A stretch of 27,295 bases of DNA, from the UHGV virus genome UHGV-0068847. One strand, 5' to 3'. Under the pieces are notes generated by a model that saw only the letters and a program-made list of their open reading frames with translations, ran no database searches and was not told where the DNA came from. A program made the position numbers and the translations under genes. This document shows, in pieces, positions 6,449 through 20,038 of the stretch; the stretch's first letter is position 1; every line of letters begins with the position of its first letter. The DNA comes from a virus.

Positions 6449-7108
6449 TTAAATGTTTTGAGTGATTTGTACAACTTTTCCGACAATGCGACAGTTACCA
6501 TCAATTTGGATTGGCTTAAATAACGGATTCAGTGGCATTAGGTATGAGTAGGGGCTATCCCAAACTAATTTTTTAACCGTTGCTTCTGATGTCCCATCCA
6601 ATATAGCAACGACTATTTTCCCATATAGATCATCAAGCTGCCCATAATGGGGCTCGACTATAACAATAGAACCTTCTGGTATAGATGGAAGTCCTTGCGG
6701 GTTAGTCATCGACTCACCGCGGACTACTAACCCAAACGCTTCATCCGATACATTTGCAGTTGTTTGAGTCCAGGAAATCACGTCTGTAAGTCTTGAGCAG
6801 GCATAGCTATCCGTCCATAAACCGGCTTGAACTGCCGATATGATCGGTACAGCTACAGGGGGTTTCAAAAAAGGCACGACGCGCGTGTCGTCAATGGCCT
6901 CATCACCGCTTCCATAGAGTATCCACTCTGGTGTTGTTGATAGAGCCTGAGCCAACTGGTGAAGGTTCTCACCATCAGGCTTTGTCGTGCCGTTTTCCCA
7001 TTTTGTAACCGATACACGGCTTACACCAAGCTTTTTAGCCAGTGCTAATTGGGTTATATCCAGCTGGATTCGTCTGGATCTGATGCGGTCTTTCATCTCT
7101 GTTTTCAT
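6449..7108 (-). CDS. cI: CI-like repressor (HTH plus S24/LexA-type peptidase domain)
   Basis: N-terminal HTH (ITQLALAKKLGVSRVSVTKWENG), C-terminal GESM serine motif and downstream Lys; divergent from the cro-like gene across the operator region. Confidence 0.85.
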   Translation of the reverse strand: MKTEMKDRIRSRRIQLDITQLALAKKLGVSRVSVTKWENGTTKPDGENLHQLAQALSTTPEWILYGSGDEAIDDTRVVPFLKPPVAVPIISAVQAGLWTDSYACSRLTDVISWTQTTANVSDEAFGLVVRGESMTNPQGLPSIPEGSIVIVEPHYGQLDDLYGKIVVAILDGTSEATVKKLVWDSPYSYLMPLNPLFKPIQIDGNCRIVGKVVQITQNI

Positions 7109-14021: not shown

Positions 14022-14732
14022 GTGTATGGAGCGCAAAGAAGCATGAATCAACAAGACCTGAATTTTGTAAGAATAGAATTGCGCCGCGCGCTACCTGACC
14101 TCTCTGGGGGAACAAAAGGGCAGCTTGAGGCTTTCAGTGAACACCCACCAGCAGACAAAAATGCCACCCCGCGCCGTGGAATTCATCTCGTCGAACTCGA
14201 AGGAGAGAAGGGGCCACGCTTTGTTAACTCGCTTTCCGCGCCACTGTATGTGCTGGAAACACGCAGCCGCCGCAGGCCAATGCCGCCGATAAAAGATGCG
14301 GAATTTGAGTCCGCGCCGTGGCGTAGGGCAGTGTCCGCGCTTAGTGGATACCAGCAGGCCTGGTTGCGGTACTGCTACGGTTTTGACCTTAGCTATAAGC
14401 ACCAGGTGATGATGTGTGAATACGTCTGGAAAACTTATCAGAAATGCCTGGGTGAAAACTCGCTTCAGGAGCGTGTAGTAAAGAAACTGATAGGTCTGGT
14501 ATGGCTGGCAGGGCAGGAAATTGCCGCAAACAGAAATAATGAAACCTATAAAGACTATGCTGGTGCAGCGTTGGCCCGCATGGTTAGCGTTGACCGTTCG
14601 ACATGGTTGCGTGTCTATTCATGGCACTGGGCTGGGTTAAAGGCCGCTTTTACCCAGCTTGATGAATCTGCGTTGGCAATGGCTCTTGAATACTATGAGG
14701 AAGAAGAAGCCCTCAAAGTGGCAGAAATGTGA
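14022..14732 (+). CDS. Putative late-gene antiterminator (QuuQ/Q-like)
   Basis: Positional: last nin-region gene, after DUF968, followed by a tR'-like terminator and the lysis cassette; no motif-level confirmation. Confidence 0.5.
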   Translation: MYGAQRSMNQQDLNFVRIELRRALPDLSGGTKGQLEAFSEHPPADKNATPRRGIHLVELEGEKGPRFVNSLSAPLYVLETRSRRRPMPPIKDAEFESAPWRRAVSALSGYQQAWLRYCYGFDLSYKHQVMMCEYVWKTYQKCLGENSLQERVVKKLIGLVWLAGQEIAANRNNETYKDYAGAALARMVSVDRSTWLRVYSWHWAGLKAAFTQLDESALAMALEYYEEEEALKVAEM

Positions 14733-14825
14733 AGTAAATTTCACTATCTCCTTCAAACGCGCTTGCAAAATGCAACAAAATAAGCCATATTTTAAGCATA
14801 TTTGATATGTTGCCAAAATTTTATA

Positions 14826-14853
14826 AACCCGCCGATGAGCGGGTTTTATTATT
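14826..14853 (+). terminator. Rho-independent terminator (tR'-like) downstream of the Q-like gene
   Basis: AAACCCGC-cgatga-GCGGGTTTTATTATT hairpin plus U-tract. Confidence 0.55.
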
Positions 14854-14948
14854 GTTGTTGGATGAAACTGAGGGGAAAGGTTAAAATTTGCCCTTCACCC
14901 GCCGGGTGATGTGCACATGAGTGCTATAAACTCCACATGGAGAGCATC

Positions 14949-15242
14949 ATGGTTAATTTAGATAGTCACCATTTTCATACCCTACGTTTTATTCATTCTT
15001 GTTATTTGTCTAATGAAGGTATGAATACTTTTGTGCAATTGTTATTCGTATCCAATCATCAGGATCCTGACGGCACATACCATGGGGTATTTCCAGATAC
15101 CAAGGTTGGTATAAGTATGACTGAATACCTATACCAAAAAACTTGCTCATCATCAGAGAAGGCTAAGTCATTAAAACCAACCTGGTTGCATTGGCGACAA
15201 CAGGAAGCTCTGGAGCTAAAACGAAATCCCTTTGATATTTAA
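14949..15242 (+). CDS. Moron ORF of unknown function (97 aa from ATG 14949; ORF track starts at 14937)
   Basis: GGAG 7 nt upstream of ATG 14949; own terminator immediately downstream; region looks AT-rich by eye; sits between tR' and the holin. Confidence 0.4.
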   Translation: MVNLDSHHFHTLRFIHSCYLSNEGMNTFVQLLFVSNHQDPDGTYHGVFPDTKVGISMTEYLYQKTCSSSEKAKSLKPTWLHWRQQEALELKRNPFDI

Positions 15243-15256
15243 ATTTGAGATTTACC

Positions 15257-15287
15257 AGCCCTGGCATTCGCCGGGGCTTTTTTATTT
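15257..15287 (+). terminator. Rho-independent terminator after the moron ORF
   Basis: AGCCCTGGC-attc-GCCGGGGCT hairpin followed by TTTTTTATTT. Confidence 0.55.
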
Positions 15288-15391
15288 CAGGCTCACGGGA
15301 ATCATCCACGATACATATTGTTGATAAATCCAGCCCGTGAAGCCTGACCCTTTCATCACACAGCGCCATCCGAATAATCGGAGGTAGGGCT

Positions 15392-15670
15392 ATGACCAGA
15401 ATGAGCACCATTTACAGCAGACTTTCATATGGATCAGGAACCACGCTTGCCGGCTGCGGTGTATCAGCGAAGGCATATGCCGAAACAGCTAAAACAGCAA
15501 AAGAGGTGTCCTGGATGTTGGCCGACAGAATTGCAGGGTTAAGCCTGAGCGACTGGGCAATTATTGTCGGTATCGCATGCACAGTTATCACTTGTGCAGT
15601 GAACTGGTATTTCCGCTGGAAAGAACGGGAGGATCGGCGCAATGGCTATGCCACCAAAGCTGAAGAATAA
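15392..15670 (+). CDS. Class II holin (phage 21 S-like pinholin candidate)
   Basis: C-terminal TM plus YFRWKEREDRR resembling phage 21 S; M-T-R-M dual-start motif; GGAGGT RBS. Confidence 0.7.
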   Translation: MTRMSTIYSRLSYGSGTTLAGCGVSAKAYAETAKTAKEVSWMLADRIAGLSLSDWAIIVGIACTVITCAVNWYFRWKEREDRRNGYATKAEE

Positions 15671-16190
15671 ACTGAGCGCAGCGGTCGTTGGTTTGATTCT
15701 TGCGGGGGCTTCCGCGCCCGTGATTCTCGATCAGTTTCTGGATGAGAAAGAGGGTAACAGCCTGACAGCATATCGCGACGGCGGCGGAATCTGGACTATT
15801 TGCCGTGGCGCCACGATGGTTGATGGTAAGCCAGTAGTTCAGGGCATGAAGCTGTCTGCTGAGAAATGCGCCAAGGTGAACGCCATAGAACGCGACAAGG
15901 CGCTGGCGTGGGTTGAGCGAAATATCAAAGTACCACTGACCGAACCACAGAAAGCGGGTATTGCGTCATTTTGTCCTTACAACATCGGCCCCGGAAAATG
16001 TTTCCCTTCTACGTTCTATAAGCGCATTAACGCTGGTGACCGTAAAGGCGCCTGTGAAGCGATCCGCTGGTGGATTAAAGACGGCGGCCGCGACTGTCGT
16101 CTGACCAAAGGCCAGAAAAATGGGTGCTATGGGCAGGTCGAGCGGCGCGATCAAGAAAGTGCGCTGACGTGCTGGGGGATTGACCGGTGA
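15642..16190 (+). CDS. SAR endolysin (T4-lysozyme-type muramidase with N-terminal signal-arrest-release segment)
   Basis: Hydrophobic N-terminus [19 protein letters not shown] followed by E-x8-D-x5-T catalytic spacing ([16 protein letters not shown]); overlaps the holin 3' end. Confidence 0.85.
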
Positions 16191-16651
16191 GTCGACTAAC
16201 AAACATCATCATTACTGTGATCATCTGCATAATCTTATCTCTAGGCTGGGCCGTTAACCACTACCGCGACAACGCGATCACCTACAAAGACCAACGCAAC
16301 AAAGCAACTGAAAAGCTCAGCCTAGCTAACGTTACTATCACCGACATGCAAACCCGCCAGCGCGATGTCGCTGCACTGGATGCCAAATATACGAAGGAGT
16401 TAGCTGATGCGAAAAACACCATTAGCGGTCTACGTGGCGATGTTGAGTCTGGGCGCAAGCAGCTGCGCGTTGCAGCCGCCTGCAATAAAGTGCGTCAAAC
16501 CACCGACACCGCCAGCATGGATGATGCAACCGGCCCCAGACTTACTGACACCGCTCAACGGGATTATTTCACTCTCAGAGAGCGAATAGAAACTGTCACC
16601 AAGCAACTTGCCGGATTACAAGAATATGTCAGTGCGCAGAATTTAAAATGA
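16187..16651 (+). CDS. Rz: Rz i-spanin
   Basis: N-terminal TM ([28 protein letters not shown]) highly similar to lambda Rz; GTG start overlapping the endolysin stop. Confidence 0.8.
16407..16589 (+). CDS. Rz1: Rz1 o-spanin lipoprotein, embedded in Rz in the +1 frame
   Basis: Signal peptide ending in a Cys lipobox-like LGASSC, then a proline-rich segment; nested entirely within Rz. Confidence 0.7.
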
Positions 16652-16711
16652 CTTGTCACCTATTTCGCTGTCTGATTAGTTATTCAATATTAGTTGGCAT
16701 AGCGTTAGTAA

Positions 16712-16957
16712 TTAACTGCAATGGCTATGACTGCAATTAATTATGGCATCAGCTTTGCTTGATGAGGATGATGGATATTTTTCGGATAAGAATTTCTGTA
16801 TGTCTTCAACAGCTTCGATGCTGACTCTAATATTTGTATGGCCATTGTTTTTTAAATAATTAACTGCTTCATCTATAAGGTTGTTTTCTGATAGAAATTT
16901 GATAACAATGGCAAAGTTATCAACGCCGGTTTCGGTTAAAAGTTCACAGTTAGGCAT
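16712..16957 (-). CDS. Cargo ORF of unknown function (81 aa) with C-terminal CSHSHCS tail
   Basis: GGAG 8 nt upstream of ATG; apparently AT-rich segment between Rz and cos; last gene of a three-ORF minus-strand cluster. Confidence 0.4.
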   Translation of the reverse strand: MPNCELLTETGVDNFAIVIKFLSENNLIDEAVNYLKNNGHTNIRVSIEAVEDIQKFLSEKYPSSSSSKADAIINCSHSHCS

Positions 16958-16962
16958 GGTTG

Positions 16963-17211
16963 TTACTCCAGTGATGTAAATGAGATTTTATTTTGGATTG
17001 TTTTTTTATCAGCGTGGGTGATATGTTTGTATGATTTTTGAGGTTGCCTAAACACAAAAGTTGTATTCAAAGTAATCGAGCTAATTAGGGTGGGCCGCTG
17101 GTTTGGTAAGGTCAGGGGATTAACTCTTATTCTATTACCTTTCTGCGTTGCCATAACCATGGGCAGACCCATCGTAATGGTAGTTTTTGAATAGGCCGCT
17201 AATGAATTCAT
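16963..17211 (-). CDS. Possible small ORF (82 aa) in cargo operon
   Basis: ATGA-coupled to the upstream ORF but no clear RBS; composition is only weakly protein-like. Confidence 0.25.
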   Translation of the reverse strand: MNSLAAYSKTTITMGLPMVMATQKGNRIRVNPLTLPNQRPTLISSITLNTTFVFRQPQKSYKHITHADKKTIQNKISFTSLE

Positions 17212-17456
17212 GGCGCATGGTTTTGGGAGGCGATTTGCAAGCAGGCATCTCGGACTTGTATCGCAAGACGAAGCCCTTCCTGAAATCTTGCTGATGCGTT
17301 GGGATCGTTTGCTGAATTTAGATAGACATTAAAAAGCTGCATGATGGTAACGCTATATGCTTGCTTAATAGCATTTTCAGTAATTGTTTCGTCCATCGAG
17401 AATCTCCTCGGTAGCATAGATGACAGGTTTACTTCCGTCTTACCATAGGTCATCAA
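17208..17456 (-). CDS. Cargo ORF of unknown function (82 aa)
   Basis: First ORF of the minus-strand cluster; TTG/ATG start pair; plausible composition. Confidence 0.35.
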   Translation of the reverse strand: MMTYGKTEVNLSSMLPRRFSMDETITENAIKQAYSVTIMQLFNVYLNSANDPNASARFQEGLRLAIQVRDACLQIASQNHAP

Positions 17457-17482
17457 TGGGATTACTTTAATAGGAAAGAAGC

Positions 17483-17801: not shown

Positions 17802-18227
17802 TTAACCAACGGTTAATGTGGAAAGCAAATGCGAAGTTTCCCCAGAGCAGTTAACAGTGGTTTCGTTGTAAGGGAATTCACCCGTATACTCGCTATTTGC
17901 AGGGGGAGTCATTTTGTTAATCAATGCAGCTTCTGCGCGCACCCGATCATCTTTTCCAGTAATAGTAGCGACGGAATAGCAGAGAGTCTCACCGACCATT
18001 AAATGTTCATTCCAGTCACCCAGCCTGTCGTGCGTGGCCACACGGGATCGGACGTTCGATGATTCGCCGATATAAATCAACTTACGAATTTCGAGTGTTG
18101 TCTTGGAGCCATTAGTAACAGCTTTGCATGCGTATACGCAGTAGATTCCTGACTGATCTGGAACGCCACTCTTATTGGCTTCACGCCAATACCCATCAAA
18201 TTGCAGATTAATTGTTTTACCAGTCAT
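17802..18227 (-). CDS. Standalone GIY-YIG nuclease-domain protein (141 aa)
   Basis: SGIYCVY ... LIYIGESSNVRSRVATH ... RVRAEAALINKMTPPAN matches the GIY / YIG / Arg / Glu...Asn motif series. Confidence 0.55.
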   Translation of the reverse strand: MTGKTINLQFDGYWREANKSGVPDQSGIYCVYACKAVTNGSKTTLEIRKLIYIGESSNVRSRVATHDRLGDWNEHLMVGETLCYSVATITGKDDRVRAEAALINKMTPPANSEYTGEFPYNETTVNCSGETSHLLSTLTVG

Positions 18228-18647
18228 TTATAGCTTCTCCTAATTACGCCAACAATAGCGCAATAGGGAAGTGGGGAGATAAATCCAAGTTACAATGAGC
18301 AATCAGTATTTCAATGACTTATGTCATGATTTTCTTATTAATTATAGAAAATATGGGGTTTTTCCATGATGACTGCCATCGTGATAGCAGGTCGCTCAGC
18401 CATTGAACGGTAGGTTGTTTGTTACACAGGCTGCCATTACAGAGGCATTCACTGAGCGCCTGAGATAATGCACAATAACTCCCCCTGTACTGAAGGAAAT
18501 GTGGAAGAGAAAAATTCCATAGGGAGCAGACTAATCTGTAGGGATTGTCTCGATATCATTAGCGCGGTCATCCGGAAAGAATGGTTGATATGTACTGATT
18601 AGTCAAAATCATGCAGAATAGTCACAGTATAAATATGCGAGGCTATC

Positions 18648-19151
18648 ATGAATTATATTTACCAATTAGTGATCTCTGTAGTAGCGGGTGGACTTGGTGC
18701 ATGGATTGCAATGTTATTTGCTTTAAAACGTTTTTATAGTGAAAAGTGGTGGGAGAAGAGAGCAGGGGCCCTTATTGAATTAACTAATGCAATTTATCAG
18801 GTAAAGGTTCTACAAGATTATTATTCTGATTTGAAAGAGTATCAACGATTAGGTCCAGATGAATATCCAAACTTTATCAAATTGAGTGCTGAGAAACTTA
18901 GTAAATTACAAATCTCAGCTGCTGAGGCAAAAGATTTAATAGTAAAATATAGCAATATCGGCCCCTTGCTGGTTACTGAATCAGTATCAAAACTTCTAAC
19001 TGATTATTTGAAACGAGAAGATAAGGTTGACTATGAAGTTAATTTTCAGGGGTTAGATACAGATGATGCTGAAGAACATCTCTTATCGTTGACAAATAAA
19101 CTTCTGGAAGATTTAGTTAAAGAATCAAAAAGCGTTCTTAAAGCAAAGTAA
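18648..19151 (+). CDS. Membrane-anchored protein of unknown function (N-terminal TM plus helical domain)
   Basis: N-terminal hydrophobic helix LVISVVAGGLGAWIAMLFAL; GAGG RBS; TATAAAT -10-like element about 20 nt upstream; coding region looks strongly AT-rich. Confidence 0.5.
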   Translation: MNYIYQLVISVVAGGLGAWIAMLFALKRFYSEKWWEKRAGALIELTNAIYQVKVLQDYYSDLKEYQRLGPDEYPNFIKLSAEKLSKLQISAAEAKDLIVKYSNIGPLLVTESVSKLLTDYLKREDKVDYEVNFQGLDTDDAEEHLLSLTNKLLEDLVKESKSVLKAK

Positions 19152-19289
19152 TCTAGAAGAAAACCTAAGGGCACTAAATGTGATGTGCCCATTTAATTGT
19201 GCATACGCTAAGAGAATCATTATAGGGATAGCTTATAAATCGAATTGTGAAATTGATATTTATTATCGTTTGCGGGTCCTTTCCAGCGA

Positions 19290-19480
19290 TCCGCTCCGTT
19301 ACGGGGCGGCGACCGCGCAGATTCTCGCTATTTATGAAAATTTTCAGGCATTTGCCGTTTCCGTTCTTCTTCTCGCTAATTCATTGTTTTAACTGTAAAC
19401 ACCCCCTGAAAAGAAAGGAAATGATAAGCCTTAAAAACGGCTAAATAGCCAGAGGGCGTTTCCTTTCTCTGTTTTTGTGC
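19290..19480. other. cos site (cosN plus cosB) of lambda-type packaging
   Basis: GGGCGGCGACCG at ~19304-19315 against lambda cosN GGGCGGCGACCT; downstream CTCGCTATTTATGAAAATTTTC and TTTCCGTTCTTCTTC closely match lambda cosB; directly upstream of Nu1. Confidence 0.8.
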
Positions 19481-19492
19481 ATGGAGTGAGCT

Positions 19493-20038
19493 ATGGAGGT
19501 CAACAAAAAGCGTCTTTCTGAAATATTTGGGGTCAGCGTGCGAACCATTCAGAACTGGCAGGATCAGGGAATGCCTGTAGCACGTGGCGGCGGAAAAGGT
19601 AATGAGGTCCTCTATGAATCTTCCGCGGCTATTGAATGGTATTCCGCACGCGACGCGGCGATTGAGAATGAGAAATTACGGAAGGAGGTGGAAGACCTTC
19701 GTCTTGCATCGGAATCCGACCTTCAGCCTGGTACGATTGACTATGAGCGTCATCGCCTCACCCGGGCACAGGCTGACGCCCAGGAACTAAAAAATGCAAA
19801 AGATTCCGCTGAGGTGGTGGAAACCGCATTCTGCACGTTCGTGCTGTCGCGGATGGCCGGAGAAGTAGCCAGCATTCTTGATGGAGTTGCTCTGTCTGTT
19901 CAGCGGCGCTTCCCGGAGCTGGAAAACCGACATATTGATTTCCTCAAGAAGGACATCATTAAAGCCATGAACAAAGCAGCTGCGCTGGATGAAATAATAC
20001 CGGGGTTGCTGAGTGAATATATCGAACAGTCAGGTTAA
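19493..20038 (+). CDS. nu1: Terminase small subunit
   Basis: Near-identical to lambda Nu1 over its length (MEVNKK...EYIEQSG). Confidence 0.95.
   Translation: MEVNKKRLSEIFGVSVRTIQNWQDQGMPVARGGGKGNEVLYESSAAIEWYSARDAAIENEKLRKEVEDLRLASESDLQPGTIDYERHRLTRAQADAQELKNAKDSAEVVETAFCTFVLSRMAGEVASILDGVALSVQRRFPELENRHIDFLKKDIIKAMNKAAALDEIIPGLLSEYIEQSG

Follow-up and report, generated by a model that had tools for sequence, protein, structure and literature searches.

A probable self-contained moron with a conserved promoter-like element and structured leader between the antiterminator Q and holin genes of a lambdoid prophage

The 660-nt gap between the antiterminator Q and holin genes of a lambdoid prophage is filled by what is very probably a genuine self-contained coding moron, located at positions 14853-15288 of the 27,295-nt stretch of viral DNA analysed here (the window). 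This reading, first put forward in a first-pass annotation of the letters alone, is borne out by breaks in homology at the terminators that bound the unit, a drop in GC content, an open reading frame (ORF) with evidence of coding, and a conserved promoter-like element and leader. The gene is the representative of a novel family of small proteins carried in a classical moron package, the notable part of which is the strong conservation of its promoter and leader. The explanation that best accounts for the locus as a whole, and that we consider reasonably likely, is an autonomous accessory transcription unit with its own promoter, dual expression and an accessory role.

Gene content identifies the whole 27-kb window as a lambdoid prophage. 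It carries a CI-like repressor gene on the minus strand (6449-7108; HTH_3 and Peptidase_S24 domains), as well as genes for a C5 DNA methylase, RusA and a DUF968 protein. The plus-strand Q gene (14043-14732; PF06323, E = 1.2e-36) encodes 229 amino acids from the ATG at 14043; the mechanically called Q ORF is longer, beginning at an upstream GTG at 14022, and the Q homologues in at least 10 loci are called at 229 amino acids. On the far side of the gap, the lysis cassette opens with a plus-strand holin gene (15392-15670; PF16080, E = 1.9e-11), followed by the genes for lysozyme (15642-16190) and Rz (16187-16651), and 3' of Rz the late region continues with Nu1/gpA terminase, portal and head genes. 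A 60-codon plus-strand ORF lying inside Rz in another frame (16407-16589) has a lipoprotein-like N-terminus and probably encodes the Rz1 o-spanin.

A candidate for the late promoter pR' of the Q module can be read from the plus strand at 14763-14791, where TTGCAA (14763-14768) and CATATT (14786-14791) are separated by a 17-nt spacer and followed, in the initially transcribed region, by repeated -10-like CATATT/GATATG motifs. The promoter scanner made no call at 14763-14791; this segment shares 97% identity with a prophage of E. coli Nissle that also carries this Q. Where relatives have a lambda-type Q, the equivalent place upstream of the first terminator is taken by a lambda-like pR' and an AACGAT pause element, and for this reason the first terminator of the window (T1) is regarded as an analogue of tR' and the promoter of the moron as distinct from pR'. 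A strong minus-strand sigma-70-like match (TTGGCA-16-TAAAAT, 10/12) at 14789-14816, between the candidate pR' and T1 and facing Q, recalls the lambda anti-Q promoter paQ, a single match of this kind being within chance expectation (2.1 ± 1.6). Downstream of pR' lies a site at which the insertion of morons is tolerated (PMC4104026).

Intrinsic terminators on the plus strand delimit the unit on both sides. T1 (14825-14852), its left boundary, is some 50 nt downstream of the start of the candidate pR' and consists of a stem at 14825-14846 and a U tract (-12 kcal/mol, z = -3.5). The right boundary, T2 (15257-15288; -18.3 kcal/mol, z = -5.3), contains a 9-bp stem at 15257-15278, an ATTC loop and TTTTTTATTT, and is conserved across the family. 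The first-pass annotation had placed the ORF downstream of a tR'-like terminator and assigned it a hairpin/U-tract terminator of its own, and T1 and T2 agree with both statements.

A BLAST comparison with 5,426 complete E. coli genomes and 50,697 phage records returned matches to the flanks of the block and none to the block itself. A prophage of E. coli Nissle 1917 matches the window at 97% identity through the end of Q, the candidate pR' and T1; this homology ends in the U tract of T1, past which the Nissle prophage carries unrelated genes for a 68-aa protein, an SDH-family Clp-fold protease and a methyltransferase. On the right, the match to phage mEp237 (88%) sets in again inside the 3' arm of T2 and runs into the holin gene, and in mEp237 the shared terminator is preceded by an unrelated gene of 213 codons. 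In E. coli, a 31-nt copy of the T2 hairpin also closes an unrelated moron of 112 aa that follows a Q gene (L039); kinship between the two moron products was rejected at an hhalign probability of 0.1%. The interval is therefore a cargo-exchange slot jointed at terminators, which matches what has been published on the pR' moron site (PMC4104026). Unrelated Q-holin cargo in E. coli prophages and phage mEp237 (L039, 2501-2531; L013, ~2490-2520) has the T2 hairpin, or the 3' arm of that hairpin with the U tract, in common with the window unit, and T2 may be a common recombination joint for cargo exchange. Database DNA searches found no empty site in which this Q is joined directly to this holin; the flanking modules carry other cargo elsewhere (Q and T1 in Nissle, the holin in mEp237).

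The coding sequence occupies 14949-15242 of the plus strand and specifies a protein of 97 amino acids (11.4 kDa). A Shine-Dalgarno (SD) sequence, GGAGAG (14939-14944), stands 4 nt before the ATG at 14949; relatives have AAGGTG at this position, and both the SD sequence and the start codon are conserved. An in-frame ATG at 14937 would yield 101 amino acids; GGAGAG serves the start at 14949, which is also the choice of public gene callers and the start of the homologues. N-terminally extended forms of 107 or 101 amino acids were rejected, because other lineages lack the extension or have it interrupted or out of frame. The 107-aa database entries P0009, P0013, P0014, P0018, P0021 and P0022 begin at an ATG inside the conserved leader (MRAGCAVRLYEGE..) and are probably start-codon miscalls, since the extension is interrupted or out of frame elsewhere in the family.

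The block is also set apart by composition. GC content drops to 0.37-0.40 (0.387 over 14733-15290), compared with a mean of 0.51 for the window, and within the ORF it is 0.367, with a GC3 of 0.316 versus 0.50-0.58 in five neighbouring genes; about 6% of 438-nt segments in the 27-kb sequence are equally AT-rich, all of them within a few accessory islands. The reading frame is intact in lineages down to 26% identity, and dN/dS is 0.19-0.53 (Nei-Gojobori) among unsaturated pairs, synonymous sites being saturated between the clade of the window and the rest of the family (pS 0.68-0.92). As far as sequence comparison goes, these patterns show the ORF to be a real gene under purifying selection. An AT-rich block, a 97-codon ORF with its own ribosome binding site and conservation of that ORF as coding sequence, the first and the last named beforehand as points on which the proposal could fail, are thus all present at the locus. 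Minus-strand ORFs at 15010-15153 and 15163-15411 were discarded, having no family-level support; plus-strand coding accounts for the conservation there. An imperfect inverted repeat inside the ORF at 15107-15136 (GGTATAAGTAT...ATACCTATACC; -12.6 kcal/mol, z = -3.7) gave a sub-threshold Rfam match to mir-1302 and is not conserved in other lineages of the family.

The exact 97-aa protein occurs in about 195 database blocks and 99 contigs, and its NCBI label is that of a MULTISPECIES Enterobacteriaceae / Citrobacter freundii hypothetical protein. An exhaustive HMMER search of 1.84 billion representatives revealed three real relatives (52, 39 and 29% identity); a further match, to the 1915-aa repeat protein P0011 with the motif PDGTY, was spurious and reflected low complexity. 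Two profile iterations converged on 23 clusters, all unannotated, from prophages of Citrobacter, Kluyvera, Leclercia, Enterobacter, Cronobacter and Atlantibacter or from related metagenomes, and the relatives found by the exhaustive and profile searches are at 26-58% identity. No family member was present among GenBank phages or PLSDB plasmids, and a DNA search of 5,426 complete E. coli genomes likewise found none.

In ten sampled loci, a 700-nt segment is 98.6-100% identical and is found with two lysis cassettes and at least three head/packaging modules; where the same moron sits on a different lysis cassette, homology extends to position 15384 of the window. All lineages but one share the order Q, ~200 nt, ORF, holin. 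This position is kept with two unrelated Q families (PF06323 and PF03589), with several head modules and with at least five types of lysis cassette, namely holin_2_3 with lysozyme, holin_3_1 with GH19, holin_3_1 with lysozyme, holin_8 and holin_3_7 with GH19, and holin_2_1 with lysozyme. The orientation of the gene is always that of the late operon. The exception is the most divergent member, P0012 (26-30% identity), which lies outside the slot at a locus without a recognisable Q or holin (L018; Citrobacter sp. wls613, SZXN01000036.1, 4300-9650). Besides AIPR, DUF4224 and DinI genes, the L018 island contains a weakly Rem-like ORF and several others that match nothing; it retains the layout of promoter, 12-bp 5' hairpin, ORF and terminator.

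Additional cargo is found near the gene in some relatives. A tRNA gene (Arg-tct, Gly-tcc) and the sRNA STnc100 (RF02076, 60-85 bits) lie between the moron terminator and the holin gene at L014 (4956-5210), L015 (6340-6662) and L021 (5588-5809); anti-sRNA, STnc100 and tRNA cargo were all absent from the slot of the window. Genes of the Acb2/Tad1-hairpin family (anti-CBASS / anti-Thoeris) occur downstream of the lysis cassette in related prophages (L021, L023 7338-7619; L025 7850-8131), whose late region can therefore accommodate counter-defence cargo.

Conservation extends to the 95 nt upstream of the ORF, a feature that had escaped the first-pass annotation. A candidate sigma-70-type promoter can be recognised there by conservation on the plus strand (14858-14887), with a -35 element TTGGAT (14858-14863), an 18-nt spacer and a -10 element TAAAAT (14882-14887). 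The -10 element conforms to TAnAAT in 11/11 aligned lineages, positions 1, 2, 4, 5 and 6 being invariant and position 3 free, as is expected of a sigma-70 -10 pattern, and a TTG-type -35 element is found 17-18 nt from it in most lineages. The window promoter itself matches the consensus at 8 of 12 positions (3/6 in the -35 TTGGAT, with the 18-nt spacer) and is under the threshold of the scanner, as is that of the L015 lineage despite a perfect TATAAT; the orthologous sites are called in L025 (TTGGCT-17-TAAAAT) and L018 (TTGATT-18-TAGAAT). These patterns make it somewhat likely that the moron has an active promoter of its own. The order of a terminator U tract that abuts a TTG-type -35, TAnAAT, two hairpins (HP1 and HP2), SD and ATG is common to all lineages, except that in L018 the nearest terminator lies ~130 nt upstream.

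HP1 (TCACCC-GCC-GGGTGA, 14895-14909, plus strand) begins 7 nt after the -10 element in the window and 6-8 nt after it in all lineages, which places it at the predicted 5' end of the mRNA. It is followed by a small stem-loop, HP2 (GCAC-ATGA-GTGC, 14913-14924, plus strand), which in relatives reads CGCGCA-GGA-TGTGCG and which is situated inside the most conserved core of the leader, where GC.CA.GA.GTGC is invariant. In the alignment, 97.7% of the cells of HP1 and 98.5% of those of HP2 are paired, and the overall figure of 98% compares with 22-59% in slid controls. HP1 shows a U-A to C-G double change and many switches from G-U to G-C or A-U. Such wobble pairs favour a function of the plus-strand RNA over one of a DNA palindrome. 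The hairpins show few compensatory changes (2 pairs, 3 cells) because the leader sequence is itself highly conserved; what is constrained could therefore be the sequence, e.g., as the target of a binding protein, and not the structure.

The promoter-like element and the leader are more tightly constrained than synonymous sites. Change in the leader is 3-4 times slower than at synonymous sites and proceeds at about the rate of nonsynonymous sites: its p-distance is 0.08 versus a pS of 0.29 within the 93-aa subfamily, and that of its core is 0.15-0.30 versus a saturated pS of 0.68-0.92 between subfamilies. A degenerate pattern for the leader gave 15 matches (11 viral, 4 metagenomic contigs), all of them directly upstream of a family ORF, which argues against a portable element that serves other genes; its single occurrence in the window likewise speaks against an operator repeated in the prophage. 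Rfam searches of the whole window returned nothing at gathering thresholds, and searches of 14600-15450 on both strands yielded sub-threshold matches only, driven by terminators.

The arrangement of these elements suggests how the unit may be expressed. Positions 14853-15288 would constitute a transcription unit with a sigma-70-type promoter, a leader of ~55 nt, an SD sequence, a gene of 97 codons and a strong intrinsic terminator; it stands within the late operon, directly after the first terminator downstream of pR' and directly before the lysis cassette. In the lysogen, the short pR' transcript would stop at T1, and transcription from the promoter of the unit would give a monocistronic mRNA of ~390 nt, which the 5' stem-loop and the 3' terminator hairpin may stabilise, while T2 would keep transcription out of the holin gene. 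After induction, Q-modified RNA polymerase would pass both T1 and T2, making the moron gene the first and most strongly transcribed of the late genes, a high level of expression that its position would predict. The combination of an own promoter with Q-dependent read-through is an accepted dual mode of expression for cargo at the pR' site (PMC4104026), and during lysogeny the accessory loci of prophages typically have a transcription of their own (PMC7067206).

The alternative that fares best is that of a purely late gene, transcribed by Q-modified polymerase from pR' only and without an independent promoter. The TAnAAT motif and the hairpins would then be RNA elements of the late transcript, involved in processing, stability or a sigma-dependent pause, and the protein would serve the lytic cycle, e.g., in counter-defence, host takeover or the timing of lysis. 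Because the orientation of the gene always matches that of the late operon, its position, directly upstream of the holin gene in nearly all loci, would suit a purely late-lytic role equally well; the weak match of the window's promoter to the consensus and the presence of Acb2/Tad1-like anti-defence genes in the late region of relatives also fit such a role. The features of the upstream region nevertheless make this alternative unlikely. The conservation of the -10 element is typical of sigma-70, with TTG 17-18 nt upstream in most lineages, and the placement of HP1 at 6-8 nt past the -10 element in all lineages is that expected of a 5'-terminal stem-loop. In addition, L018 preserves the syntax of promoter, leader, ORF and terminator away from any recognisable Q or holin, and terminators on both sides, superfluous for a plain late gene, fit a self-contained unit.

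The leader might also be a cis-regulatory RNA that gates expression of the ORF, whether as a translational switch or by binding a regulator, an explanation that is compatible with the moron reading and that we consider rather improbable. Its slow evolution, at a rate similar to that of nonsynonymous sites, and the retention of sequence as well as pairing in the invariant core agree with such a function, and in the minimum free energy (MFE) folds of several lineages the SD/AUG region is paired with the 3' half of HP2. The hint of occlusion of translation initiation in these folds was rejected, however, when the accessibility of the SD-AUG region proved no different from that of shuffled leaders in 7/7 lineages (fraction at or below the observed value, 0.11-0.97), and it is for this reason that no translational switch is claimed. 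The absence of an Rfam match, the sparse covariation and the failure of the motif to recur anywhere else in the window also count against a regulatory leader.

The product of the moron gene has a near-neutral pI of 6.6 and is hydrophilic (GRAVY -0.54), with no signal peptide, lipobox, transmembrane segment or hydrophobic segment, the maximum of the Kyte-Doolittle profile over 19 residues being 0.58. AlphaFold2 modelling on the 23-sequence alignment (pLDDT 86.6, pTM 0.73) predicted a long N-terminal β-hairpin (residues 10-35) together with three short helices and two strands that are likewise short. The product is probably a soluble, β-rich protein of 11 kDa with short C-terminal helices. Invariant or nearly invariant residues fall in two clusters, F-P-D-T-G-V...M-T-E-Y.Y and a C-terminal, aromatic and basic segment, W-L-H-W-R-Q...L.L-K.N-P-F (WLHWRQ..L.LK.NPF), and no catalytic motif is evident among the conserved residues of the family. 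The protein most likely acts by binding another macromolecule, or as an inhibitor. Searches of Pfam, PHROGs, NCBIfam, PADLOC and PDB sequence profiles with the window protein and the 23 family members gave no significant match, in keeping with the earlier remark that the product resembles nothing recognised.

That remark had been accompanied by a suggestion of toxicity or virulence, based on the toxin genes of Stx phages and the hok/rel genes of Qin, for which the protein offers no support. By analogy with stx, hok or relF in the slot of other lambdoid phages, the cargo could be conceived of as a toxin or virulence factor, and the grounds for this highly improbable reading are the slot analogy only (PMC4104026, together with what is established about Stx phages and the prophage Qin) and the foreign, AT-rich composition of the block. 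Against it stand the hydrophilic character of the protein, which is without signal peptide, lipobox or hydrophobic segment, the lack of matches to toxin, toxin-antitoxin or defence families, and the fact that no partner gene, partner ORF or antisense RNA was found, Rfam reporting nothing above threshold on either strand. Within the moron reading, the most probable role of the protein, though still a tentative suggestion, is that of an accessory factor expressed in the lysogen and involved in conflict between phages or between phage and host (superinfection exclusion, defence or counter-defence), with specificity for Enterobacteriaceae other than E. coli; it amounts to a prior, since it derives from the logic of the slot and of expression.

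The last alternative, that the ORF is spurious and the AT-rich block a non-coding spacer or the source of an sRNA only, could appeal to the small, taxonomically narrow and unannotated family and to the anti-sRNAs known from pR' moron sites of EHEC prophages (PMC4104026), but is effectively refuted by the frame that stays intact to 26% identity with dN/dS below 1, the confident AlphaFold model obtained from the family alignment, the conserved SD sequence and start codon, and the failure of any Rfam family, anti-sRNAs included, to reach threshold.

Other accessory features are distributed along the prophage. A second AT-rich island (16650-17460, GC 0.33-0.40) directly follows Rz and contains three tandem minus-strand ORFs of 81, 82 and 82 codons (16712-16957, 16963-17211 and 17208-17456) without Pfam matches; located between lysis and packaging genes, it has the look of an antisense accessory cluster. 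A further stretch of low GC content extends over 17917-19573. The 141-codon minus-strand ORF at 17802-18227 matches GIY-YIG below threshold (E = 0.0019; 18.9 bits, the cut-off being 22.6) and could be a homing-endonuclease-like gene upstream of Nu1, and a 167-codon ORF at 18648-19151 has no match.

The locus provides a clean and compact example of how lambdoid prophages package cargo at exact terminator boundaries, here in the part of the late operon that is most strongly transcribed. The gene is found in Enterobacteriaceae other than E. coli and went undetected in E. coli genomes, though the flanking Q and holin modules circulate there, a distribution that points to a benefit that is specific to the host or to a competitor. 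It is one among very many uncharacterised morons and leaves current understanding unchanged; a promoter and leader better conserved than the protein, together with a confident structure prediction that is unmatched, nevertheless make it a reasonable and cheap candidate for functional screens.

The closest known counterparts are the morons of lambdoid phages as defined by Juhala and Hendrix, e.g., bor and lom of lambda and the morons of HK97 and HK022. Like these, the unit brings together one extra gene, a promoter-like element and an intrinsic terminator, is inserted between conserved modules that carry other cargo elsewhere, and deviates in base composition; unlike them, its protein is in no described family. 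To our knowledge, conservation of promoter and structured leader across a whole family that exceeds conservation of the protein, as is seen here, has not been described as a general feature of morons. Its place after Q, pR' and tR' and before the lysis genes is that of stx1/stx2 and of cargo in cryptic prophages of E. coli (PMC4104026). As with Stx-phage cargo, an own promoter and Q-dependent read-through would be expected, and relatives of the locus resemble Stx phages in carrying tRNA genes in the slot. The product differs from such cargo, which includes secreted AB5 toxins and membrane peptides, in being a small protein predicted to be cytoplasmic. By Rfam, the convergent anti-sRNA pair of EHEC prophages (PMC4104026) was not detected at the window locus. 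Small β-barrel (SH3/Tudor-like) domains also count among the closest known systems. For the leader, the comparison is with the 5' UTR of ompA, an example of an mRNA stabiliser formed by a 5'-terminal stem-loop. Like it, the moron leader has a conserved stem-loop a few nucleotides from the transcript start, here a predicted one, and shows G-U to G-C switches; unlike stabilisers of the ompA type, it adds a second hairpin and an invariant GC.CA.GA.GTGC core that have no counterpart there.
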